Assembly: GCF_057098645.1 (NCBI RefSeq)
Contig: NZ_CM169472.1
DNA length: 64,000 bases
Direction: 5' to 3' (one strand)
The notes beneath the pieces are model-generated. The model had not been told where the DNA came from. It did not search any database and saw only the letters and a list, made by a program, of their open reading frames with translations. Position numbers and translations under genes: made by a program. Below are positions 9,190 through 60,945 of this stretch, piece by piece (position 1 is the stretch's first letter; each line of letters begins with the position of its first letter).

Positions 9190-9276
9190 TGGTGCGAGGG
9201 GGGGGACTTGAACCCCCACGTCCGTAAGGACACTAACACCTGAAGCTAGCGCGTCTACCAATTCCGCCACCTTCGC
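9190..9276 (-). tRNA. leuV: tRNA-Leu (CAG)
   Basis: 87-nt sequence whose reverse complement is GCGAAGGTGGCGGAATTGGTAGACGCGCTAGCTTCAGGTGTTAGTGTCCTTACGGACGTGGGGGTTCAAGTCCCCCCCCTCGCACCA. Confidence 0.95.
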
Positions 9277-9310
9277 ACAGTCATCTTACTTTTTTTGATA
9301 TCGCCTCGTT

Positions 9311-9397
9311 TGGTGCGAGGGGGGGGACTTGAACCCCCACGTCCGTAAGAACACTAACACCTGAAGCTAGCGCGTCTACCAATTCCGCCACCTTCGC
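9311..9397 (-). tRNA. leuP: tRNA-Leu (CAG), middle copy with one base change in the variable arm
   Basis: Same 87-nt tRNA except gtaagaacact versus gtaaggacact on the plus strand. Confidence 0.93.
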
Positions 9398-9425
9398 CCA
9401 GTGCGAGCAATATCAACGTGGTTTT

Positions 9426-9512
9426 TGGTGCGAGGGGGGGGACTTGAACCCCCACGTCCGTAAGGACACTAACACCTGAAGCTAGCGCGTCTACCAATTC
9501 CGCCACCTTCGC
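9426..9512 (-). tRNA. leuQ: tRNA-Leu (CAG)
   Basis: Third tandem copy, identical to the first. Confidence 0.95.
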
Positions 9513-9629: not shown

Positions 9630-9800
<171 letters not shown>

Positions 9801-12852: not shown

Positions 12853-14091
12853 ATGGCGCTGTCTGATGCGTGGTTGCGTTCAGTCGTTGGAAAGGAACGT
12901 GATAAGGTTTTGGTTAAATCCGATCGTGATGGTCTGTCTGTCAGAGTATCACCGAAAGGTCGCGTAGTGTTCCAATATCGTTATCAATGGGCAGGGAAAG
13001 GTGAGCGCCTTGATATCGGAACTTACCCGGCAACTGGATTAAAAGAGGCCAGAGAAGAAGTTATCCGTCTCCGTGGTGAACTCGAGTCAAACCGCAATCC
13101 ACGATTAGTCAAGCAGGCTGAAAAACGAAAAGCTACTGAAGCTATGACGGTAGAGTCTGTGATCCGTGCCTGGTATGAAGCATATTGTGTAAAAAATAAA
13201 AAAGGTTCTGAACAGATACTCCGCTCGTTTGAGCTGCACCTGTTCTCTAAAATCGGGAATATCCCTCACGATGCAGCTACATTGCATGATTGGTTAGAAG
13301 TCCTGGAGCCTCTTAGCACTAAGACTCCAGCAATAGCAGACCGATTGCTAATTAACGCAAAGCAGGCCCATGTCTGGGCGTATAAGAGAAAGCTCATTGA
13401 AACTCGCCCGCTGTCGGATATCACGGGTAAAGATATGGATATCCGTAAAGGTCAGAAGAAACGGTTTCTGACACATGATGAAATTAAAATCCTTTATGCT
13501 GCGATCGATGGTTCTCGAATGGTTCCCAAATACCGGGCCTTCATTAAACTATTGCTGCATTTCGGCTGTCGTAGTTCAGAGCTGATTACTGCCAGGGTGG
13601 ATGATTTTGATTTCATTAATAAGGTATGGACTGTACCGCCAGAACGACATAAGACAGGTGATATAACAGGCGAACCGCTAAAGCGCCCCATTATTGAACC
13701 GGTTGAAGAGCTTATAAAATACGTTATCTCTATGAACAACGGTTCCGATATGCTTTTTACCAAGGAAGGAAGCAAGGAGCCAGTTGGTCGGACATCATTG
13801 CAGTCGCTGCCTTACAATTTAATGCAGTACGCATGGCGGCGTTTGGGGTATCAATTTCCTCATTGGTCTCTTCATGATTTGAGACGAACAGCACGAACAA
13901 ACTTTTCTGATCTTACTGCGCCTCATATTGCTGAAATAATGCTCGGTCATAAACTGCCAGGGGTATGGCAAGTTTATGATAAGAGCGATTATCTAGAAGA
14001 ACAGCGTAAAGCCTATCAGGCATGGTGGGATAGGGTTGATTCGATTCTTACTTACACTAATTTAGGTTCCAACAGACAGCCTATTGAATAA
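12853..14091 (+). CDS. int: Phage tyrosine integrase (P4-type, N-terminal arm-binding DUF4102-like domain)
   Basis: 412 aa; catalytic signature HDLRRTARTN ... LGHK ... VYDKSDY; adjacent to attL. Confidence 0.9.
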   Translation: MALSDAWLRSVVGKERDKVLVKSDRDGLSVRVSPKGRVVFQYRYQWAGKGERLDIGTYPATGLKEAREEVIRLRGELESNRNPRLVKQAEKRKATEAMTVESVIRAWYEAYCVKNKKGSEQILRSFELHLFSKIGNIPHDAATLHDWLEVLEPLSTKTPAIADRLLINAKQAHVWAYKRKLIETRPLSDITGKDMDIRKGQKKRFLTHDEIKILYAAIDGSRMVPKYRAFIKLLLHFGCRSSELITARVDDFDFINKVWTVPPERHKTGDITGEPLKRPIIEPVEELIKYVISMNNGSDMLFTKEGSKEPVGRTSLQSLPYNLMQYAWRRLGYQFPHWSLHDLRRTARTNFSDLTAPHIAEIMLGHKLPGVWQVYDKSDYLEEQRKAYQAWWDRVDSILTYTNLGSNRQPIE

Positions 14092-14203
14092 TGAATAGAC
14101 ATACAGAGTAAGAAAATAGTAATGATTCTTGGATTATAATTAACTGGTTGCTGATATTTTGATTTGCCGATTTATGAAGAGACGGTCATTATACTTATAA
14201 AAA

Positions 14204-14237
14204 CACCACTCCTTATCCTTACAGAAATAAGGAGTGG
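14204..14237. terminator. Bidirectional hairpin terminator between the convergent int and deaminase genes
   Basis: Perfect 10-bp inverted repeat ccactcctta / taaggagtgg with T/A-rich flanks. Confidence 0.6.
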
Positions 14238-14243
14238 AAACAG

Positions 14244-15851
14244 TTATGGCTGAGACTCTGGTTTAGCAATCTCGTTTATAAATTTCTTAGCTACAACAGT
14301 CTCATACTTTCTATAATCATCAAGATATTGAACATCTATATGATTTTCGTAGCGAGCATTAAATTTATTTGCAGCCCCTGTTTTATCATCTTTACGTTCA
14401 TCCGTTGGTCTGAAAAATTTATGGTAGCGGCGGGGTGATACCCCCTCAAAATCACAAAATATTACTTTGGAAGATTCTTCGTTCTTTGTTATTGCATCAT
14501 TATGCAGATCAAGAGCAAGACTTTTATCAAATGGCTCTATATATACTACTTTTTTTATTCCAGCTGCGACAATATGCCTTGCACAGTTGTGGCAGGGATA
14601 GGTTGTCGTAAAAAGAATTTTATCTTTAGTATCGCCGTTTTGTTTTCTAGCCATTGATGTAATGACGTCCATTTCAGCATGAATTGATCTGGAGTACTCC
14701 ATTACACTTGATATTTTGCTGTCTTTGTAAATGCCTTCTGCAATATTATCTAATTTGTTTAGAAGTCGTGTTATATTAATATCGGCAACAGTTTGTCCTG
14801 CGGAAATACCTAATACAGTTCTTACTTCGGTTGATAATATGCTTTTTATACGGTCTTTAATTTTTAGCTTGTTTGCATCATTATAACACTTACCACTTTT
14901 GTGAACGCATCGATGATCGTTATCAAAATCATCACTGCTATACAACCCGCCACCAGCTTTAGGTACGTCGTTCTTACCCACGGCAAGCAAATTCCCTTCA
15001 TCATCAAACAGTGCAGCCCCTACTTGACGTGATAAACAAGCTGATTGTAATGATGTTGAAAAGGCAGCATACATACCTTTCTCGTTAAAAGTTGGTGTTA
15101 AACCATTTTTGCCATGAATAAGACCGAAAAACCGATCAATCTTCTTCTTTAATTCACTTTTTTGGCTGAAGTTATTTTTAATAAAAAAATCTGAATCAAG
15201 AATGGTTTCCCCGGTTCTTTGTCCATACGGATCAGAGGATTTATTATCAATATTGATAATTAAATGAAGGTCGTTCTTTGTCGATTCGTCATCAATGAGA
15301 TTCTGAATTCGGTAATCTAAATCGCGCAAAACTCCTAACAAATAGAAATTATGCTGATATATAACTCTGAATAACTCTATTTCTTCCGGCCTTTTGAATT
15401 GATCAATGATGAAGACAGTACCTTTATATTCATCATTATTATAATCATTATTATAATCAATATTATTTTTCTCTGCTGCGATTGCTGCAATAGCAGCTTC
15501 TGCAAGCAACTCATTTTTTTTGTAATGTTTACGAAGTTTATTGGCAATATCCTGGAGTTTTAAATGTCTATTAGCTTGTGTGCTTTCGGATACCTTCAGT
15601 GCTGCTGGCTCAAAATATAATGGGTTTTCCATAAGCGCACTTATGCGGATGTGTACAACATTATACCCCCATTCTTTGGATATCTCTTCGATAATTTTGT
15701 TTATCGTTCTCATGCCACATCCAACATATCCACACAATCCAAGATAAATATCTTTTGATTGTCGTGAATTCACAATCTCAAGTGATGATGCCGATGTTGA
15801 GCCTTTTTTTTCATTCAGCTTTTGTGGAGTTTTTTTTGCTGCTTCAGCCAT
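14244..15851 (-). CDS. AvcD-like / dCTP-deaminase-family defense protein: N-terminal degenerate P-loop NTPase (kinase-like) fused to a C-terminal dCMP/cytidine-deaminase (CDA-fold) domain
   Basis: 535 aa; degenerate Walker A LGLCGYVGCGMRT (aa 38-49); deaminase zinc motifs HAEMDVI (aa 391) and PCHNCARH (aa 419-426); AT-rich cargo between int and xis. Confidence 0.7.
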   Translation of the reverse strand: MAEAAKKTPQKLNEKKGSTSASSLEIVNSRQSKDIYLGLCGYVGCGMRTINKIIEEISKEWGYNVVHIRISALMENPLYFEPAALKVSESTQANRHLKLQDIANKLRKHYKKNELLAEAAIAAIAAEKNNIDYNNDYNNDEYKGTVFIIDQFKRPEEIELFRVIYQHNFYLLGVLRDLDYRIQNLIDDESTKNDLHLIINIDNKSSDPYGQRTGETILDSDFFIKNNFSQKSELKKKIDRFFGLIHGKNGLTPTFNEKGMYAAFSTSLQSACLSRQVGAALFDDEGNLLAVGKNDVPKAGGGLYSSDDFDNDHRCVHKSGKCYNDANKLKIKDRIKSILSTEVRTVLGISAGQTVADINITRLLNKLDNIAEGIYKDSKISSVMEYSRSIHAEMDVITSMARKQNGDTKDKILFTTTYPCHNCARHIVAAGIKKVVYIEPFDKSLALDLHNDAITKNEESSKVIFCDFEGVSPRRYHKFFRPTDERKDDKTGAANKFNARYENHIDVQYLDDYRKYETVVAKKFINEIAKPESQP

Positions 15852-15861
15852 TGCTAATTAC

Positions 15862-16047
15862 CTAGTCGAAAACTATATCAGTATTTATTATTTCAAAAAA
15901 TGCATCAAGAATTTCTTTATTTTTCTTTTTACTTTCAAATGAAATGACATTATCTTGATTAAATGTTGTTAATTCAATGCAGATAGAATCAACCTGATCA
16001 TTGGCGGCGATGCTCGATTCTATTTCATTAAATGCTATTACATTCAT
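15862..16047 (-). CDS. Small upstream ORF (61 aa) co-oriented with the deaminase gene; possibly an AvcI-like antitoxin locus (peptide or sRNA)
   Basis: Stops 10 nt before the deaminase start codon; very AT-rich; no recognisable domain; weak RBS. Confidence 0.35.
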   Translation of the reverse strand: MNVIAFNEIESSIAANDQVDSICIELTTFNQDNVISFESKKKNKEILDAFFEIINTDIVFD

Positions 16048-16391
16048 TTATCTTATCCAAACATAATAAAAAACCATATGGCCTTTAGTGTACAACAAAA
16101 CCATACTCTTTCCCCTCATTTTAGAGGGGGAAGTGTGGTCCACATCATGTTTTTTCCCACCCATGAAAATGTTCACCTAGGCTGGTGATGCATTTTATGT
16201 ACATCAACTCTTTGAGTTGAATCATTATTTTAGTATTTTTTCTATCATTGTGTAAATGTCTTCGTTTCAATACATCATGCTTGGGGAGCGGTCCCCGTTT
16301 CCTGATAATTAATGCTTGTGGATAGCAACGTCCGTGCCTGTATCGCTCAGACAGACGCTTACCGTGCCATAGACGTGTCTGTTCACATACG

Positions 16392-16586
16392 TCATTCAAT
16401 AACTCCTGCAAACCTGTAAATCTTGCGTGAAGCCCATTTATTTGGGCATGATTTAATATCAGGATCTGGAAAATCAGGCCTGTACTTCTGGCCAGTTCTC
16501 CGGTTTACGCTGTTCCAGCGAAGAACTGTCGATACTGAAACGCCACAGAAGTCGGCGACTTGTTTAGTTGTCATTAAGTTGTTCAT
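16392..16586 (-). CDS. xis: Excisionase / AlpA-family HTH DNA-binding protein
   Basis: 64 aa; MTTKQVADFCGVSVSTVLRW HTH, then the proline-rich FPDP segment typical of AlpA/Xis. Confidence 0.65.
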   Translation of the reverse strand: MNNLMTTKQVADFCGVSVSTVLRWNSVNRRTGQKYRPDFPDPDIKSCPNKWASRKIYRFAGVIE

Positions 16587-17206
16587 TACTTCACCTCCTG
16601 CGGCGGTTCCGGTAGCGGCATCCAGTGGGTTACTTTCGATGCCGGTTCTTCTCCATTGTCAGTAACTGCCCACCATTTGTTTCTCGAACAATCATAATAC
16701 CCTTCGAAGGTATCGCACTCAGTCCAGCCGTAAGACTTACCCCGACACCAAACATACTGTTTATCGTTCGGCATTCGCTCACTACAGCTTATCCAACCAT
16801 CCGGAGTTACCGGAGAGTTGCCCGACAGCTTGTTCAACTTGTAAGTCTGGCTTACAGGTTTGGCACCATGAAGCATGGTGGCGCGGCAGGCGTTCCAGCC
16901 TTCATCAAAACCGACTATGCCATTATTTAAAGACGGACGAGCATCTGGCACCACCAGTACTGGCTTGGCTATATATAGCGGCTGAACATACCAGCCCTTT
17001 GATAACCAACTGTCAGCAATGTTTTTGCTCCTGGTTATTGCCGGAATACCTAAGCCATTGTCTGAATGCAGCCATGCCACCGGCTCCTCTTCCAGCGATG
17101 CCAGAGCAATTTCATAAGCACGGCGCTCAATATCGTCTCGAACCTCTAGGCTGCTGATTCGTTCTTTGATTTCTTTAATCAGTTCTTTATTGGTAAATGT
17201 GGTCAT
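16586..17206 (-). CDS. Phage DUF551-domain protein
   Basis: 206 aa with a Trp/Cys-rich C-terminus ending ...KVTHWMPLPEPPQEVK, typical of DUF551. Confidence 0.6.
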   Translation of the reverse strand: MTTFTNKELIKEIKERISSLEVRDDIERRAYEIALASLEEEPVAWLHSDNGLGIPAITRSKNIADSWLSKGWYVQPLYIAKPVLVVPDARPSLNNGIVGFDEGWNACRATMLHGAKPVSQTYKLNKLSGNSPVTPDGWISCSERMPNDKQYVWCRGKSYGWTECDTFEGYYDCSRNKWWAVTDNGEEPASKVTHWMPLPEPPQEVK

Positions 17207-17568
17207 TATGCTCCAGCCTCCGGCGCTTTGGGTATTACTGCCCAGTGAGTGATATTGAAGTTTTCAAGGTCCCCGACCTGAAATGTCCACTGCCATTCTC
17301 CGGTTTCTTTTTGTCCCCAGGTGTACCAGAGAGAACGCCAGCCAATCAGCCAGCCTTCTCCGTTAGCATCAAATAACAGAACACTTTCATTTGCTGGTGG
17401 CAGTTCAGCTGACACTGGTATTATTTTGTTTTCCAGTGCCGCACATTTAGCTTCAAGCGCGTCGAATTTACGTACCAGGTACTCAGCATTTGTTTCGTTC
17501 ACTTTCAGATCTCGCGGTACACATTTCCCGCGAAGAAACCCTTCCATTTCGAAAACATTCATGCGCAT
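17206..17568 (-). CDS. Phage early protein, hypothetical (YfdS-like position)
   Basis: 120-aa ORF translationally coupled to its neighbours in the early-left operon. Confidence 0.5.
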   Translation of the reverse strand: MRMNVFEMEGFLRGKCVPRDLKVNETNAEYLVRKFDALEAKCAALENKIIPVSAELPPANESVLLFDANGEGWLIGWRSLWYTWGQKETGEWQWTFQVGDLENFNITHWAVIPKAPEAGA

Positions 17569-18095
17569 TTGCGTAACTCCGATAATTCGTTAAAGCGTTC
17601 CATAAACATCCCGTAGGCATGGCCTGGAGCCAGTGGAATCACGTTGATCATCTCTGTTGCCGGGATACCTTCCAGCACAGGCCAGAAAGAGCCATCATCA
17701 AGCCCGAGATCGCGGCGTTCGGTTGCCAGCATGATGAGATCGGCATATTTCACGGGTGTACTCATAACCGGGGGTAACCCGTATTTCTCACGGATTACGG
17801 CGTCTATTTTTTCTTCCATCCGTTTATAGTCAGGAAGAAGGCGTTTCAGTGGAGCCGGGATGTCCTGGCAATACGCTTCTGTTGCATCATGCATTAACGC
17901 TTCAAAAGCAAATTCCTGCGGTACCAGTTTGCTGCAAAGCACCGCATGTTGGGCGACGCTGTAGAAGTGTGAAAGATGACCGGCAAAGCGACAGATATTT
18001 GAAAGGGAAACTGCGATATCGTTAATCACGATGTCGTCTTTATTTATCCTGTCATAATAAAAATGCTTCCCGGAAAAAGTTTTAATAAATGACAT
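17559..18095 (-). CDS. HD-domain phosphohydrolase (YfdR-like 5'-deoxynucleotidase)
   Basis: Starts MSFIKTFSGKHFYY...; HD motif ...VAQHAVLCS ... MHDATEAY; the ORF-track start at 18122 is an extension. Confidence 0.7.
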   Translation of the reverse strand: MSFIKTFSGKHFYYDRINKDDIVINDIAVSLSNICRFAGHLSHFYSVAQHAVLCSKLVPQEFAFEALMHDATEAYCQDIPAPLKRLLPDYKRMEEKIDAVIREKYGLPPVMSTPVKYADLIMLATERRDLGLDDGSFWPVLEGIPATEMINVIPLAPGHAYGMFMERFNELSELRKCA

Positions 18096-18222
18096 TTTGT
18101 TCTCCACGTATATGCGCTGCACCGCGCTGAATTTTGGTTAAAGAAAACCCTCGCCATCAGGCGATTATTGAGTCAATTATGTTTCCATAAATGCCCCCGC
18201 AGGGGCATTTGCAGTAAGGAAA

Positions 18223-19047
18223 TCAGGCGGTAAAAGTACCAATAAAGGTTTCTACTTTGCTGTCTTTGAGTTTCTCAACAAGCAGATCACGAAATTCGTT
18301 AGCCATTTCTTCCTGCACTGCTTCCAGCTGAATAATGCGCAGAACCAGTACAGGACGATCGCCAGTGATAATGCTGAGGCGTAATTTAAACGGACGTTCT
18401 TGCAGGCCTTCAAACGGAACGCATTTAAATTCAAATGCCACTGGCATAATGTCTTTGGTCTTCGCTTCGACAGATTCCATCAGGGAGCGTTTGCCGCTGA
18501 AGTCATTATCTTCAAAATCAGCGGTCTGGTTTGCTTCAATCGTGATTTTACGGACTGCCGCAGCCGCTTTTGTTGCCTGAATGGCGTCACCATTAGCATC
18601 AAAGCCCACAAGGTAGTCGGCCCAGTCTTCAATCCATTCTGCCAGTGACTTCTGGGAGTTACGCTCGCCGTTAACAGACAACAGGGCAGAGAACGGTGCT
18701 GTCTTTTTCAGTTTGAGAGTGGCGGTGTTATCTGCGTGACCTGGTTCATCAATAGTACCCAGGTTAAGCACACTGACGGCACGCATATTATCAGCATCGA
18801 TAAAGCAGCGGGTGCCTTCATCTGCAAGATCTTTAGAATAACGGGTAAAATCATCGATGCTGGCAGTGGAAAGCGCGCCACGGAAACGGAAGCGATTTAA
18901 ATTAAATTTTTCCAGATCATGAATGCGGAAATTCTCAGGCAATGCCACAGCATCGGCACCAATCTTACTGATAATTTCATTAACACCCTGAGCAGAAATA
19001 AGGGCATGGATTTGATTAATTGCGGTTGCGTCTAAGTTCTGAGACAT
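18223..19047 (-). CDS. YfdQ-like (DUF2303) phage protein
   Basis: 274 aa, [21 protein letters not shown]...; length and sequence match remembered CPS-53 YfdQ. Confidence 0.65.
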
Positions 19048-19112
19048 AATAAGTCCTCACTATATAAAGATATTCAGTGATGAGATAAATAATCAGTTAA
19101 TTAAGAACGATA

Positions 19113-19475
19113 TTAATGACCTGCTGCGCGTAGTTTTCCGTCAGGTTCACCGGCAAGAGTCAGTAATTGTCCCTGGTCTTCCTGCAGAATAGTCAGGCGA
19201 CCACCGCGATTGACATACATCGGCGTTTCGGTGGTGTCTTCTTCGGAAATTTTCCCGCGGTTAGTCGGGCGAACATATGAGAGTTTGTGTTTGATTTTCA
19301 CACGGTTCTCATCAAATGGTTCGATTTCCAGGTTGAGTGAGACCTTACCTTTGGTTTTCGTGTTCATCACACCGGAAGCGACTTCACTGAGAACTGCGCC
19401 GATTTTGGTTTCAAATACGCCGCCGTCCAGCTCCCCGATAAATGCCTGCACATCAGTACTGCGTTCGCTAGCCAT
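19113..19475 (-). CDS. Phage early protein, hypothetical (YfdP-like position)
   Basis: Likely start MASERSTDVQAFIG... preceded by AGGAG at the right spacing; the track ORF 19113..19706 runs further upstream with no RBS. Confidence 0.5.
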   Translation of the reverse strand: MASERSTDVQAFIGELDGGVFETKIGAVLSEVASGVMNTKTKGKVSLNLEIEPFDENRVKIKHKLSYVRPTNRGKISEEDTTETPMYVNRGGRLTILQEDQGQLLTLAGEPDGKLRAAGH

Positions 19476-20070
19476 TTTGCTGCTCCTCATCATATCGACC
19501 CTGCAAGGTCGGTTGGTTTCTCCACAAAACAGAGAAGAACACCTGCGGTGGCAGCCGCCCGGATGGATTGGGTTATGAGCCCGTCGTCCGGTGATGCTCT
19601 TCTCTGTTTTGTAAAAAGAGCGGTACCAGCCGGAAGCAAGTGTACAAACTGGTACCGCCAAAGCAGTGGCTGTTGTGGTGGGCTTGTCACTCAGGCGTAT
19701 GGTCAACCTGACAATCCGGTGTCCTCAACGGGGAAAGAGTAACCCCGCCATACTTACCGCCGCGCCATTTCGCGGATTACCACAACGCTGAGAGCACTTA
19801 GCCAGTTACAGCACCACACTTTGTCGCGGCTCCATAAATGCCCTCATCGTTGCACCCTGGTCTCTTCCCAGGCGTCAAACCGAATCGCCACGCTGGTTAG
19901 GCGTCTTATCAGCATCATCATTGACTTGCACATTCCGGCTACCTGGTTTGTTTGCCCGAGCAAGGAGTGGATTGTCCCCTTTAACGTCCCCAGACCGCTA
20001 ACGACGCATGTGCCATACGCCGTGTTACAACCAAATTTTGTTTAATCTTGCCTGTGCTGTGTTTCTTTTA

Positions 20071-20100
20071 GATACATTATGTATCCCAAGGGTACATTGT
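20071..20100. promoter_or_regulatory. Candidate OL/pL operator region (palindromes with the GGTACA half-site)
   Basis: Perfect 15-bp palindrome gatacattatgtatc (20071..20085) and gtatcccaagggtacat; the half-site recurs in the cI-cro intergenic region. Confidence 0.4.
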
Positions 20101-20106
20101 CAAGTA

Positions 20107-20129
20107 TAAAAAAACCTGCCGAAGCAGGT
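20107..20129 (-). terminator. Rho-independent terminator downstream of cI
   Basis: Minus-strand hairpin cctgcttcggcagg followed by a U7 tract. Confidence 0.75.
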
Positions 20130-20141
20130 TATAAATATTGA

Positions 20142-20816
20142 TTAGGCCTTTATTATGTATCTTCTTGGTTTTCCTGAGAAAATCACTGTACCAATTATAG
20201 AGCAATTACCGTTGATCTTAATGTAAGGTTCAGGCCAGTTTGGGTTTAATGCTTTGAGGTAACGCTGTGTTCCATCTTCTATCAACCGCTTGAAGGTGGT
20301 TTCGCCTGTATCGTGCATCAATGCAATAACGTCGTCACCGTGGCAGGCAGGGACTTCAGGATCAACAAAAATCATGTCTCCCGGGCGGTACTCATCAATC
20401 ATTGAATCACCAATCACCCGCAAGATATAAGTCATTTCGCCACAGGGTACAGGGCAGGGGTAAGTTTCTGCTGTGCTCAAATCAACCTCAGAATAGCCAA
20501 CTTCTTTCCATGCTCCGGCCTGTACCCATGATATGACAGGGACTAACGTTATTTGTTTGTTAGTGATTGAAACATCAGGTTTTTTTGTGATGTTCGTGGT
20601 CTGGTGTTCTTGATCAAGCCATCCGACAGGCAGGTCGAAACATTTTTCGATGTGCCGCGCCATGCTGTCACCGATATTTTTAGTAGCACCATCTCCCATA
20701 AACCTGCTGGTCTGGGTTGGCTCGCGATCAATCATGGTGGCAAAGGAAGAATTCCCGCCAACACCATCTCTCAGTTTTCTGGCGTTAGACCGCCGGATGT
20801 CATGGACTGTTTTCAT
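20142..20816 (-). CDS. cI: CI-like prophage repressor (HTH plus LexA-like S24 peptidase domain)
   Basis: 224 aa; C-terminal S24 region with GDSM motif (VIGDSMIDEYRPGDMIFVDPE); divergent from a cro-like gene. Confidence 0.85.
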   Translation of the reverse strand: MKTVHDIRRSNARKLRDGVGGNSSFATMIDREPTQTSRFMGDGATKNIGDSMARHIEKCFDLPVGWLDQEHQTTNITKKPDVSITNKQITLVPVISWVQAGAWKEVGYSEVDLSTAETYPCPVPCGEMTYILRVIGDSMIDEYRPGDMIFVDPEVPACHGDDVIALMHDTGETTFKRLIEDGTQRYLKALNPNWPEPYIKINGNCSIIGTVIFSGKPRRYIIKA

Positions 20817-20832
20817 AAAGAAATTAAAACCT

Positions 20833-20851
20833 TTGTACCGATAAGGTACAA
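20833..20851. promoter_or_regulatory. Operator in the cI/cro divergent promoter region (OR-like)
   Basis: Perfect palindrome TTGTACC-gataa-GGTACAA; a second imperfect copy (tgtatacc gga ggtacata) overlaps the cro RBS at 20884..20904. Confidence 0.6.
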
Positions 20852-20906
20852 GTATCTTGAAGGTTCATCTTAATCATGTAATATGTATACCGGAGGTACA
20901 TATTGT

Positions 20907-21107
20907 ATGAAAGCGTATTGGGACTCTTTAACCAAAGAACAGCAGGGCGAGTTGGCCGGAAAAGTTGGCTCAACACCAGGCTATTTACGGCTGGTTTTCA
21001 ATGGTTATAAAAAAGCCAGTTTTGTGCTGGCTAAAAAACTTGAGCAATGCACGTCAGGTGCAATTACGAAATCTGACTTAAGACCGGATATCTATCCGAA
21101 AGATTAA
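20907..21107 (+). CDS. cro: Cro/YdaS-like HTH regulator
   Basis: Small HTH ORF divergent from cI; GGAGG RBS before the ATG at 20907. Confidence 0.7.
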   Translation: MKAYWDSLTKEQQGELAGKVGSTPGYLRLVFNGYKKASFVLAKKLEQCTSGAITKSDLRPDIYPKD

Positions 21108-21138
21108 CAGAACACCTTCAATTTTTAACCACAGAACG

Positions 21139-21702
21139 ATGAGGCTAACCGTGGGTAAGCATCACTGGAAAGTAGAAAAACAGCCTGAGTGGTACGTGAA
21201 AGCTGTCAGAAAAACTATCGCGGCGTTGCCGGGGGGGTACGCTGAAGCTGCTGAGTGGCTAGATGTAACAGAGAACGCTTTATTCAACCGCCTTCGTGCA
21301 GATGGCGATCAGATTTTCCCGCTGGGATGGGCAATGATTTTACAGCGCGCGGCTGGCACTCACTACATTGCGGATGCTGTCGCACAGTCTGCTGGTGGGG
21401 TGTTTGTATCGCTTCCTGAAATTGAGGAAGTAGAGAACGCCGATATAAACCAGCGCCTGCTGGAAGTCATCGAACAGATCGGGAGTTACTCAAAGCAGAT
21501 TCGTTCGGCAATCGAAGATGGGGTAGTGGAGCCACACGAGCAGACAGCAATTAATGATGAGTTGTATCTGTCAATTTCGAAGCTCCAGGAGCATGCAGCA
21601 CTGGTCTACAAAATCTTTTGCGCTCCAGAAAAGAGTGACGCCCGCGAGTGTGCAGCTCCGGGCGTCGTGGCGTTTTGTGTCTGTGGAGAAACTAACGCAT
21701 GA
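21139..21702 (+). CDS. CII-like / YdaT-family phage regulatory protein
   Basis: 187-aa ORF directly after cro; assigned by position and general resemblance to prophage CII/CP76-type proteins. Confidence 0.45.
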   Translation: MRLTVGKHHWKVEKQPEWYVKAVRKTIAALPGGYAEAAEWLDVTENALFNRLRADGDQIFPLGWAMILQRAAGTHYIADAVAQSAGGVFVSLPEIEEVENADINQRLLEVIEQIGSYSKQIRSAIEDGVVEPHEQTAINDELYLSISKLQEHAALVYKIFCAPEKSDARECAAPGVVAFCVCGETNA

Positions 21703-22535
21703 ACAGTTTAACGGCAAATAACCGTTTGTCGCAACAGCTGGTGGTCAGCGTCGCTGAACACCTGTTGTTACGGCATGAATGCAGATTACCAAATCACCTG
21801 GCTGTAAGTAACCACAGAGAACTTTACCTGACTGTGGGGGGCGAGTTGTGCAGGAACTTAACCGCTGGTTTCGTGACGGAAGAGGGCTTTATGTCCATGT
21901 TATTCGTTGGGAGCCAGAAACACAGCGCGTTATCTATCTTCGCAAAGACTACCCGCATGAGTGCTTTAGTCCTTTGTGGAAATTCAGGCGTGATTTTGTT
22001 GAGTGTGAAGGACCACCAGCACATTGATTCTGCCATTCCGGGACGTTACACTGTTCAGGCACCTTATAAAGCGGGTGCCGGGATTGGCGTCCTGGAAATG
22101 TTATCGGCGATATATGACGCGCCAGCGTCTTTTTTATCGTCTGCGTCTGTGCACACCCAAATTATGGTGGGCTGGACGGGGGCACCGAAAGGTGCGCCGG
22201 TTTCCGATAACGCCGGTTACGCCAACCCCGTTCAGTTCACCACCAGCGAAATTGGCGTTTCCGGTGGTGAAGGTAATTCACTGTTATCGGAGGCTGCCAT
22301 CATGGCTACTGTCCCAGCCCTCACTCGTCTGAATGATGAAGACTTACATAAACTCAGTTATGTAACAACTGCACTACGTGCTCTGCGCAAGGTAACTCTT
22401 TCGGATCCGCAGGCGCATCAAGTTCTGGTAGAAACCCTTCTTAACTTGCAGGCTGAACGTATTCGTCTGGCGGATAAGGCTAATTTTCATATTCACCGTC
22501 TCCTGAATATCAGCGGAGGGCATCGTCATGCTTAA
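21699..22535 (+). CDS. Hypothetical phage protein (replication-module position)
   Basis: 278-aa ORF translationally coupled between the CII-like and O-like genes; no motif recognised. Confidence 0.5.
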   Translation: MNSLTANNRLSQQLVVSVAEHLLLRHECRLPNHLAVSNHRELYLTVGGELCRNLTAGFVTEEGFMSMLFVGSQKHSALSIFAKTTRMSALVLCGNSGVILLSVKDHQHIDSAIPGRYTVQAPYKAGAGIGVLEMLSAIYDAPASFLSSASVHTQIMVGWTGAPKGAPVSDNAGYANPVQFTTSEIGVSGGEGNSLLSEAAIMATVPALTRLNDEDLHKLSYVTTALRALRKVTLSDPQAHQVLVETLLNLQAERIRLADKANFHIHRLLNISGGHRHA

Positions 22536-53755: not shown

Positions 53756-54336
53756 TGGCATTCAGAATGAGTGAACAACCACGGACCATAAAAATTTATA
53801 ATCTGCTGGCCGGAACTAATGAATTTATTGGTGAAGGTGACGCATATATTCCGCCTCATACAGGTCTGCCTGTAAACAGTACCTATATTGCACCGCCAGA
53901 TATTCCGGCTGGTTTCGTGGCTGTTTTCAACAGTGATGAGTCATCGTGGCATCTCGTTGAAGATCATCGGGGTAAAACGGTTTATGACGTGGCTTCCGGC
54001 GACGCGTTATTTATTTCTGAACTCGGTCCGTTACCGGAAAATGTTACCTGGTTATCGCCGGAAGGGGAGTTTCAGAAGTGGAACGGCACAGCCTGGTTGA
54101 AGGATACGGAAGCAGAAAAACTGTTCCGGATCCGGGAGGCGGAAGAAACAAAAAACAACCTGATGCAGGTAGCCAGTGAGCATATTGCGCCGCTTCAGGA
54201 TGCTGCAGATCTGGAAATTGCAACGGAGGAAGAAATCTCGTTGCTGGAAGCATGGAAAAAGTATCGGGTATTGCTGAACCGTGTTGATACATCAACTGCA
54301 CCTGATATTGAGTGGCCAGCAGCACCTGTAGGATAA
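53755..54336 (+). CDS. tfa: Tail fiber assembly protein (Tfa)
   Basis: 193 aa following and coupled to stf; C-terminal ...[23 protein letters not shown]... Confidence 0.85.
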
Positions 54337-60528: not shown

Positions 60529-60945
60529 TTTGCCCTTCGTAGGCAGCATCCGGCAGTCGGCGCATAATGCCTGATGCGACGCTTAACGCGTCTTATCATG
60601 CCTACAGGTTTGTGCCGAACCGTAGGCCGGATAAGGCGTTCACGCCGCATCCGGCAGTTGGCGCACAATGCCTGATGCGACGCTTGTCGCGTCTTATCAT
60701 GCCTACAAGTCTGTGCCGAACCGTAGGCCGGATAAGGCGTTCACGCCGCATCCGGCAGTCGGCGCATAATGCCTGATGCGACGCTTGTCGCGTCTTATCA
60801 TGCCTACAGGTTTGTGCCGAACCGTAGGCCGGATAAGGCGTTCACGCCGCATCCGGCAGTTGGCGCACAATGCCTGATGCGACGCTTGACGCGTCTTATC
60901 AGGCCTACAAGTCTGTGCCGAACCGTAGGCCGTATCCGGCATGTC
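60529..60945. repeat. Tandem REP/BIME array (four ~100-bp units)
   Basis: Four repeats of ...gcctgatgcgacgctt(g/a)(t/a)cgcgtcttatcatgcctaca(g/a)g(t)ttgtgccgaaccgtaggccggataaggcgttcacgccgcatccggcagt(c/t)ggcgca(t/c)aat... Confidence 0.85.

Follow-up and report, generated by a model that had tools for sequence, protein, structure and literature searches.

Processive antitermination that is mediated by an RNA and needs no protein is, to our knowledge, documented for essentially one phage RNA family, put. The put RNAs of HK022 and HK639 act in cis on the beta' zinc-binding domain of RNA polymerase and confer termination resistance without a phage protein, an activity abolished by rpoC zinc-binding-domain mutations such as Y75N; they measure about 65-75 nucleotides (nt) and fold into two stem-loops (126 nt are annotated in HK639). 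In lambda, where the N protein works through nutL, the site likewise lies in the leader between pL and the first terminator. For the passage of early terminators in the N-less phages SfV, SfII, SfIV, ST64B, LLS, mEp460, cdtI and some Stx-converting phages, the literature offers only "maybe put-like" solutions; SfII, SfIV, SfV and LLS are published as lacking N, and put has been speculated for LLS (PMC3851460, PMC12315714). The locus described here belongs to this group. It lies in a 64,000-nt stretch of an E. coli chromosome (contig NZ_CM169472.1 of assembly GCF_057098645.1; "the window" below) and is part of an SfV/cdtI/mEp460-type lambdoid prophage without N, in agreement with the published status of its relatives. 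A gap of 630 bases (19476-20106) is the untranslated leader of its early-left (pL) operon, an ordered array of RNA modules which we call C, B, A1 and A2 in the direction of transcription. Element C, the module next to pL, is a large double-pseudoknotted RNA that occupies the slot of put without being a put RNA. By analogy we tentatively propose, at somewhat less than an even chance, that it is a put-analogous cis-acting antiterminator with A1 as its cognate terminator.

The leader RNA corresponds to the minus (pL) strand, on which C, B, A1 and A2 all show conservation and covariation at the RNA level. This emerged from the folding and covariance analysis of homologs that a sequence-only reading of the window had recommended. 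The same reading had described the gap as a structured, non-coding leader, and the folding energies agree: the whole leader reaches z = -3.65 relative to shuffles, and the region of the two A hairpins (19476-19672) has -87.8 kcal/mol versus -58.5 +/- 4.5 for shuffled sequences (z = -6.5, 0/200). Both inverted repeats that it had listed, one of 18 bp and one of 10 bp, are present and correspond to A2 and A1, respectively. Its idea of a cis-acting antitermination RNA coincides with what is now the best-supported functional reading, but it had been attached to these two repeats and thus to the wrong structures. The put-like candidate, which lies nearer to pL, could not be spotted from one sequence, since single-sequence folding gives only z = -0.84 for C (B, at -0.98, is equally uninformative); covariation was needed to find it. 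Rfam 15 has no match in 19476-20106 at gathering thresholds, and the matches obtained at E <= 10 (E 0.88-9.9) all stay below threshold and mostly cover the cI terminator or its vicinity. As Rfam holds no put model, HK022 and HK639 giving no match either, this negative is uninformative about put. No transfer RNA (tRNA) or transfer-messenger RNA was detected in the leader by ARAGORN.

Element C starts about 40 nt past the predicted pL start and measures 157-186 nt among its members. It consists of helices P1 to P5 and two pseudoknots (four helices covarying). P1 is a hairpin, CGGCG[UAUGGCACAUG]CGUCG in the window and CGGCR[UAUGGCACAUG]YGYCG as the family form. P2 (CGGUCUG...CAG-GUA-GCCG) closes a variable insert; P3 is a variable hairpin, P4 a short one of 4-5 bp, and P5 a hairpin with the loop GAAGAG (GAAGAGA in the window). 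In the first pseudoknot (PK1), the P1 loop GCACAU pairs with AUGUGC and is invariant save one U-A to U-G change; in the second (PK2), the P4 loop CACC pairs with GGUG, with AACC/GGUU in the window and GGUC/GACC in one further locus (L073). We used alignments of 48 and 44 distinct homologs. In the latter, 98.2% of the cells are paired versus 26-46% with the partners slid, and 12 pairs change on both sides (104 cells), which none of 500 shuffles equalled; the 48-sequence alignment gave a similar pairing result. The frequent G-U pairs are confined to the minus strand, which fixes the strand of C. Many unpaired nucleotides are invariant, and those at the junctions are highly conserved. A nesting of the 5' domain suggested by RNAalifold, with PK1 in place of P1, was overturned by explicit pair counts. 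The covariance model of C, termed R1, scores the window copy at 144 bits (E = 1.7e-45) as the sole match in the 64 kb, and neither R1 nor nhmmer revealed a second, putR-like copy in the window or its pR operon. Two loci hold truncated or internally deleted derivatives of C: one retains only P1 plus AGCGGUCCG right behind a promoter/operator (L257, 1636-1671), the other has P1 fused directly to the PK2/P5 part upstream of a tRNA-Arg (L277, 2407-2470).

An invariant 18-mer of C retrieved at least 120 IMG/VR loci with 104 unique cores, and a second pattern added more. In total, phage or prophage loci with C number at least 170; they are confined to Enterobacterales and comprise N-less lambdoid, epsilon15-like and P1-like phages. 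A scan of species-representative genomes yielded 38 pattern matches, from which R1 discarded about 17 chance matches in unrelated taxa; the 21 true members are all from Enterobacterales bar two on short, mis-binned contigs of metagenome-assembled genomes. C is annotated neither in Rfam 15 nor in the GenBank records examined, and searching the literature by topic and by sequence string turned up no paper with its sequence, although C-like sequences may have been mentioned earlier. In lambdoid loci, C lies directly downstream of the repressor gene and pL, combined with at least three repressor types including that of mEp460; in the two main clusters of repressor ORFs (open reading frames; 33 and 31 loci), about 175-235 nt separate the ORF end from the 18-mer downstream. 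The first genes past C are yfdP/Q/R-like or ParB-like there, never N-like. In the epsilon15-like phage phiV10, C is followed leftward by tRNA-Arg(UCU), then by two terminators, the first of A1 type, and by p03, with a last terminator closing the unit. No sigma70-like promoter was found between the first two terminators and p03, so p03 needs read-through. In P1-like phages, C is located 14 nt past trnI, directly before ban. Altogether, 41 of 125 copies are co-oriented with and directly adjoin tRNA-Arg(UCU) or tRNA-Ile(CAU), and for the other 84 the flanking 1.5 kb on each side are free of tRNAs; C is a portable module across unrelated phage types. Some genomes or contigs harbour several copies, e.g. 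L327, L328 and L329 in Phytobacter ursingii or L014 and L015 on one IMG/VR contig, and one lambdoid contig combines a pL-type C with a C-tRNA-Arg-ORF moron copy on the opposite strand.

Downstream of its core, C continues into a 3' extension, which epsilon15/phiV10-type copies also have; there it runs up to the 5' end of tRNA-Arg(UCU). In the window, module B comes next, a cargo RNA with hairpins CCGCG/CGCGG, CGGGG/CCCCG and UUGUCA/UGACAA and a probable pseudoknot GUAUGG/CCAUAC; 6 of the 25 pairs of its consensus fold show compensatory changes. Homologs of B are 75-92% identical and include P1/P7/SJ46-like phages (L004, P7, 5416-5557 minus; L026, 8484-8622; L117, 1191-1332), in which B lies just downstream of the C1-controlled Pban operator, 20-40 nt past it in P1-like phages. 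The order of the ban operon is Pban, B, trnA, trnT, tciABC, trnI, C, ban.

A1 has the anatomy of an intrinsic terminator, its efficiency being a prediction: the stem contains 7 G-C pairs and is followed by UCUUUUU. In homologs this stem is swapped for the fully compensated variants GGCGGUGCCAG/CUGGCACCGCC, GGCGGUUAUCC/GGAUAACCGCC and GUCGGCGUC/GACGCCGAC, and the CUUUUUACA tail is kept. The terminator scan missed A1 of the window because of its 19-nt loop; it called the A1-type site of phiV10 (14 bp + CUUUUU). Of the 42 context groups, 22 (95 of 123 distinct downstream sequences) have an A1-type hairpin with CUUUUU in the interval from C to the first gene, and in 15 groups another canonical terminator comes after it. 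A2 has a lower stem of about 20 bp, topped by a branched apical region with conserved GACGGGCUCAUAACCCAAUCC, and abuts the ribosome-binding site of the yfdP-like gene. Its covariation is modest (19 variants, 95.5% of cells paired versus at most 50% when slid, 5 compensatory pairs, 0/500 shuffles). The lambda N leader carries an RNase III site, which A2, as a large hairpin before the first gene, recalls; A2 may possibly be an RNase III or a stability/translation element.

For the comparison with put we assembled putL and putR of HK022, the annotated "putL-like antiterminator RNA" of HK639 and at least 120 further classical put loci. C and put are alike in their setting: both belong to N-less lambdoid phages, are found shortly past pL on the transcribed strand, and have cargo cassettes and terminators behind them. 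In HK639-like phages, put comes after pL and is separated from the first gene by stem-closed cassettes, and C sits in the same slot; the cassette AAUGCGCAGGCUGAUGCGC...GCCGGAGAUCAGC, seen by eye, follows put in two loci (L232, L167) and C in mEp460. Among 293 fetched loci, 123 had only put, 170 only C and none had both. Stem I of put consists of C10-G14/C30-G34 (CGGCG/CGUCG) with the bulge C26-A-U28-G29 and the preceding A9, and cryo-EM identified the CAUG bulge and the A9-G35 platform as the interface with the beta' zinc-binding domain (PMC9378689). The P1 region of C in the window reads A-CGGCG-UAUGGCA-CAUG-CGUCG, matching put stem I in the helix, the bulge letters and the 5' A, and in both RNAs the strand after the 5' half of this helix (its loop) pairs with a distal strand. 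This 15-nt helix motif and the genomic slot are all that the two have in common. However, the helix of most members of the C family is CGGCA/UGCCG, the equivalent of G35 is a U or C, and CAU is predicted to be engaged in PK1.

Several peculiarities were seen among the put loci themselves. In the HK639-like loci L232, L167, L135 and L164, the first ~500 nt past put contain one or two variable RNA cassettes, closed by GGAAUGUUUUGG/CCAAAGCAUUUC, a stem of 12 bp, and additionally by an inner stem; one of them ends in a T-arm-like GGUUCGACUCC, followed by CCACCACACCACCA. ARAGORN predicts odd tRNA-like genes right past put in L140, L149 and L193, and in the put variant L190 (1203-1280) stem I is directly followed by CGCUCUUUAACAA, a canonical boxA sequence.

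The slot of C can also be filled by a third conserved RNA, element D, which follows pL directly in SfV (L002, about 3485-3400, minus) and in ST64B. It reads ACAGGCAGGACGCCCACGAAGUAGCCGCC, then a covarying hairpin (CCUGG/CCAGG in SfV, CCGGU/ACCGG in ST64B) and GAUGAUUCG, and is matched by neither the C nor the put model.

What makes the put-analogous interpretation of C the best at present is the order of the modules, taken together with the lack of N, the finding that C and put exclude each other, and the helix that C shares with put, where it contacts the polymerase. A promoter consistently comes first and is followed by a structured RNA (put, C or D), cargo (tRNA or cassette), a terminator and finally the genes. 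Binding to RNA polymerase, antitermination and processing at A2 are steps that we infer. Once the repressor leaves pL, RNA polymerase would transcribe C first (20028-19850), which would fold co-transcriptionally into a compact double-pseudoknot RNA and, by analogy to HK022 and HK639 put, might stay on the polymerase that made it and confer termination resistance. The modified polymerase would then transcribe the cargo B, read through A1 (19660-19613), pass A2 and express the yfdP-, yfdQ- and yfdR-like genes and beyond. Polymerases without a C of their own would stop at A1, so that the operon would be insulated.

Several observations weigh against this proposal. The put model R2, built from 28 putL-type sequences and HK022 putR, scores HK022 putL at 95, HK639 putL at 86 and HK022 putR at 52 bits, and finds nothing in the leader or in 12 C- or D-bearing loci at E <= 10; conversely, R1 and nhmmer built from C do not match put, and blastn of the window and mEp460 leaders against the put loci gave nothing at E <= 1e-8. 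Given that the covariance models fail in both directions, C is not a member of the put family, and the "HK022 put type" which the sequence-only reading had envisaged is rejected as a family assignment. C also differs from put in its length and architecture. HK022 has putL and putR (for HK639 only putL is annotated), whereas C is single and shares with put the location in the early operon of an N-less phage for pL, not for pR. The U equivalent to the essential U28 of put (within CAU) is predicted to be paired in PK1. SfV and ST64B share A1, A2 and the yfdP-like gene with the window, and SfV also the cI/immunity region, yet they carry D in place of C. Unlike put, C occurs in epsilon15-like and P1-like phages beside tRNAs, and in P1/P7 it lies mid-operon with no terminator between C and ban. 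Its location beside a tRNA in 41/125 loci would fit a processed stable RNA as well.

The last point leads to a reading that we consider less likely but still a serious possibility, namely that C, cargo and A1 form a stand-alone non-coding RNA unit. C together with B or tRNA-Arg would be stable, processed and trans-acting (early-made decoys, counter-defence or host-takeover RNAs), A1 would merely be their terminator, and the early genes would be expressed by leaky read-through or other signals. The movement of C as a module among lambdoid, epsilon15-like and P1-like phages, often next to same-strand tRNAs, speaks for it, as does the separate occurrence of B and C in the P1 ban operon, where C is in mid-operon. 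So do the terminator, usually 100-660 nt past C, and the cargo cassettes, closed by conserved stems resembling processing stalks; the invariant unpaired nucleotides and two pseudoknots of C recall a ribozyme or a protein-binding RNA. In its strongest form, to which we give slightly less weight again, C (perhaps also B) would not be an antiterminator but a new class of double-pseudoknotted stable phage RNA, co-expressed and co-processed with tRNAs from early promoters. It would act in trans, for instance as a ribozyme, or by decoying or inhibiting a factor of the host's defence or RNA processing, and would move among lambdoid, epsilon15-like and P1-like phages in a cassette bounded by its own A1-type terminator. 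However, a stand-alone unit has difficulties with P1/P7, where C has neither promoter nor terminator of its own, and with phiV10, where a conserved protein gene is preceded by two terminators and nothing promoter-like intervenes. Nor does it account for the whole lambdoid early-left operon, which depends on passing A1, or for the mutual exclusivity of C and put in one slot. A sensor, i.e. a riboswitch-like aptamer or factor-binding RNA that responds to a ligand or host protein by controlling A1 termination or first-gene translation, would suit the compact pseudoknotted fold, the conserved junctions and the terminator-like hairpin downstream. It is improbable in our view, as the putative expression platform is separated from C by 190-560 nt that hold unrelated cargo RNAs or a tRNA, the downstream genes (yfdP-like, ban, p03, ParB-like) are functionally unrelated, and neither an alternative C-A1 pairing nor an Rfam riboswitch match was seen.

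We regard a small protein encoded within the leader as very improbable. The sequence-only reading had named a conserved short protein-coding gene as what would speak against its proposal, and no ORF in the gap behaves as a gene. The two candidates, a 66-amino acid (aa) minus-strand ORF (19690-19490) and a plus-strand ORF of 64 aa annotated in Ayreon, do have PHROG matches, and the minus-strand frame is open in most homologs; in addition, by reading, ST64B-type copies have an AGGAGG-GUG start within the A1 loop. But both matches are to families of unknown function (phrog_33599 for the minus-strand ORF), and different families on opposite strands of one DNA point to gene-caller artefacts on conserved DNA. 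In the window type we saw, by reading, no Shine-Dalgarno sequence before the GTG start of the minus-strand ORF; its substitutions are spread over codon positions 1/2/3 as 17/20/19, and the frame is broken by a 1-nt deletion in L292 and by a 2-nt insertion plus a stop in L296, with an offsetting frame shift in L100. The same columns covary as RNA helices. For C itself the codon-phase counts of 91/79/81 show no periodicity, its length varies across all residues modulo 3, and in 8 of the 44 members none of the six frames is free of stops, so that a small protein was rejected here as well. Scarcely credible, finally, is that the leader is non-functional mosaic DNA with recombination scars and chance hairpins. 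The region is clearly mosaic, with pieces recurring independently in different phages; yet compensatory changes keep the helices in C, B, A1 and A2, contradicting chance, C is retained in at least 170 loci from many Enterobacterales genera, and the A hairpins fold far better than shuffles. Spurious "hypothetical proteins" are currently placed into the leader region by gene callers. The coding sequence PhiV10p04 of phiV10 (L005, 2672-2923, plus), which runs antisense over tRNA-Arg(UCU) and the A1-type terminator, is probably spurious, and the ORFs annotated within the leader in Ayreon, mEp460 and F1055 look likewise.

Lambda-type N/nut antitermination was considered and discarded. In line with the sequence-only reading, which saw no N-like antiterminator gene, no N-like protein was found among the early-left ORFs tested against PHROGs, which yielded only yfdP/Q/R-type and unknown families; the first pL ORF is not an arginine-rich N-like one, and unlike in lambda there is no boxB-type 15-nt hairpin in the leader. 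A boxA-like string exists in the tail of A1 only, where CGCUCUUUUUACAA resembles the boxA consensus CGCUCUUA / UGCUCUUUAACAA; most A1 variants read GCCCUUUUU and thus depart from boxA. Like C, the EAR RNA of Bacillales eps operons, conAn, and boxA of rrn operons and CRISPR arrays are early RNA elements of long units with terminators or structured untranslated stretches. They differ from C in sequence, fold and host; moreover, conAn needs a protein and boxA uses Nus factors. We know of no case in which one of these systems travels with tRNA cargo. Phage tRNA morons and tRNA-linked large structured RNAs resemble C in this regard, as C adjoins tRNAs and behaves as a mobile cassette, but C is not tRNA-like according to ARAGORN and Rfam. 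With its covariation-supported fold, its paired terminator and the natural swaps of put, C and D in one slot, C is a concrete and widespread candidate for early-terminator passage in N-less phages. If C indeed binds RNA polymerase, it would represent a second, structurally distinct solution that reuses the zinc-binding-domain helix of put, and would inform how nascent RNAs reprogram the polymerase; if it does not, it would be a new large structured phage RNA linked to tRNAs.

The spread of the leader was followed by blastn against 50,697 phage records, of which 135 match; 24 hold at least 80% of it, including cdtI, Ayreon, 2H10, Stx2c-converting phages and mEp460. Its pieces recur independently: query positions 1-205 in SfV, SfIV and ST64B-like phages, 189-311 in PPompW prophages and Tritos, and 305/384-561 in the non-lambdoid phiV10/epsilon15-like and P1/P7/D6/SJ46 phages. 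Since mEp460 has a different immunity region and still keeps the leader from 20042 leftward, the leader belongs to the early-left module. Parts of it are present in 4766 of 5426 complete E. coli genomes, and at least 80% in 903; in those genomes the PGAP annotation of the leader consists of hypothetical proteins only or is missing.

The features of the locus are compiled in Table 1. The intrinsic terminator of the cI-like gene, annotated as terminator in Ayreon and SfV, forms the upstream boundary of the leader unit. The predicted pL overlaps operator-like palindromes and is the best sigma70-like site (11/12 matches, leftward) in the 8.5 kb from 14000 to 22500; a promoter is annotated at the equivalent place in Ayreon. 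Transcription is predicted to start at about 20069.

Table 1. Features of the prophage leader and its surroundings (window coordinates unless another record is named)
Feature	Position	Strand	Basis or remark
Element C core, 179-nt conserved structured RNA	19850..20028	-	covariance model R1 + covariation
3' extension of C, ending ...CUCUCAGCGUUGUGG	19787..19849	-	90-100% identical in 90 loci incl. phiV10-type
Module B, cargo RNA of ~100 nt	19672..19786	-	closing inverted repeat GUUGUGGU/ACCACAAC
A1, terminator-like hairpin GCGGUACCAG[19-nt loop]CUGGUACCGC then UCUUUUUAC	19613..19660	-	perfect 10-bp repeat (19620-19629/19649-19658, 100%; end placed at 19660 in the sequence-only reading)
A2, long hairpin	19524..19612	-	25-nt arms (19524-19548/19588-19612), 84% complementary, containing the core of the 18-bp repeat; fold
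Small hairpin CGACCUUGCAGGGUCG	19511-19496 (within 19473..19513)	-	sequence, fold
Shine-Dalgarno GAGGAG of yfdP-like gene	19488-19483	-	sequence
First early-left gene, yfdP-like	start 19475, AUG 19475-19473	-	phrog_204 match
yfdQ-like gene	start 19047	-	leftward operon
yfdR-like gene	start 18122	-	leftward operon
Predicted pL promoter	20076..20103	-	-35 TTGACA 20103-20098, 16-nt spacer, -10 CATAAT 20081-20076
Intrinsic terminator of cI-like repressor gene, AACCUGCUUCGGCAGGUU + U7	20113..20130	-	terminator scan
cI-like S24 repressor ORF	20142-20816	-	ORF ends at 20142
cro-like gene	20883-21107	+	
CII-like gene	21139-21702	+	
Host-side features (tRNA-Leu, REP/naRNA4, IS009)	9190-9512 (-), 9652-9734, 60625-60905, 54098-54296		
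Element D in ST64B (L295)	~2165-2095 of that record	minus	right after pL

Further RNAs and genes were noticed elsewhere in the window. The pR operon contains IsrK (63.7 bits) and the C4 antisense RNA (82.8 bits) at 22059-22247 (+), inside or beside an ORF of 278 aa (21699-22535); in this lambdoid prophage they represent an antirepressor control module like immI of P1. An ORF of 535 aa (14244-15851, -) at the distal early-left end matches phrog_9198 and has a dCMP-deaminase-like domain; it adjoins the integrase gene (12853-14091, +), is followed by a strong terminator (14237-14206), and is possibly a moron or a defence gene. On the host side there are REP/naRNA4 repeats, a match to IS009 RNA (223.6 bits) and, close to the end of the prophage, three tRNA-Leu(CAG) genes in tandem.

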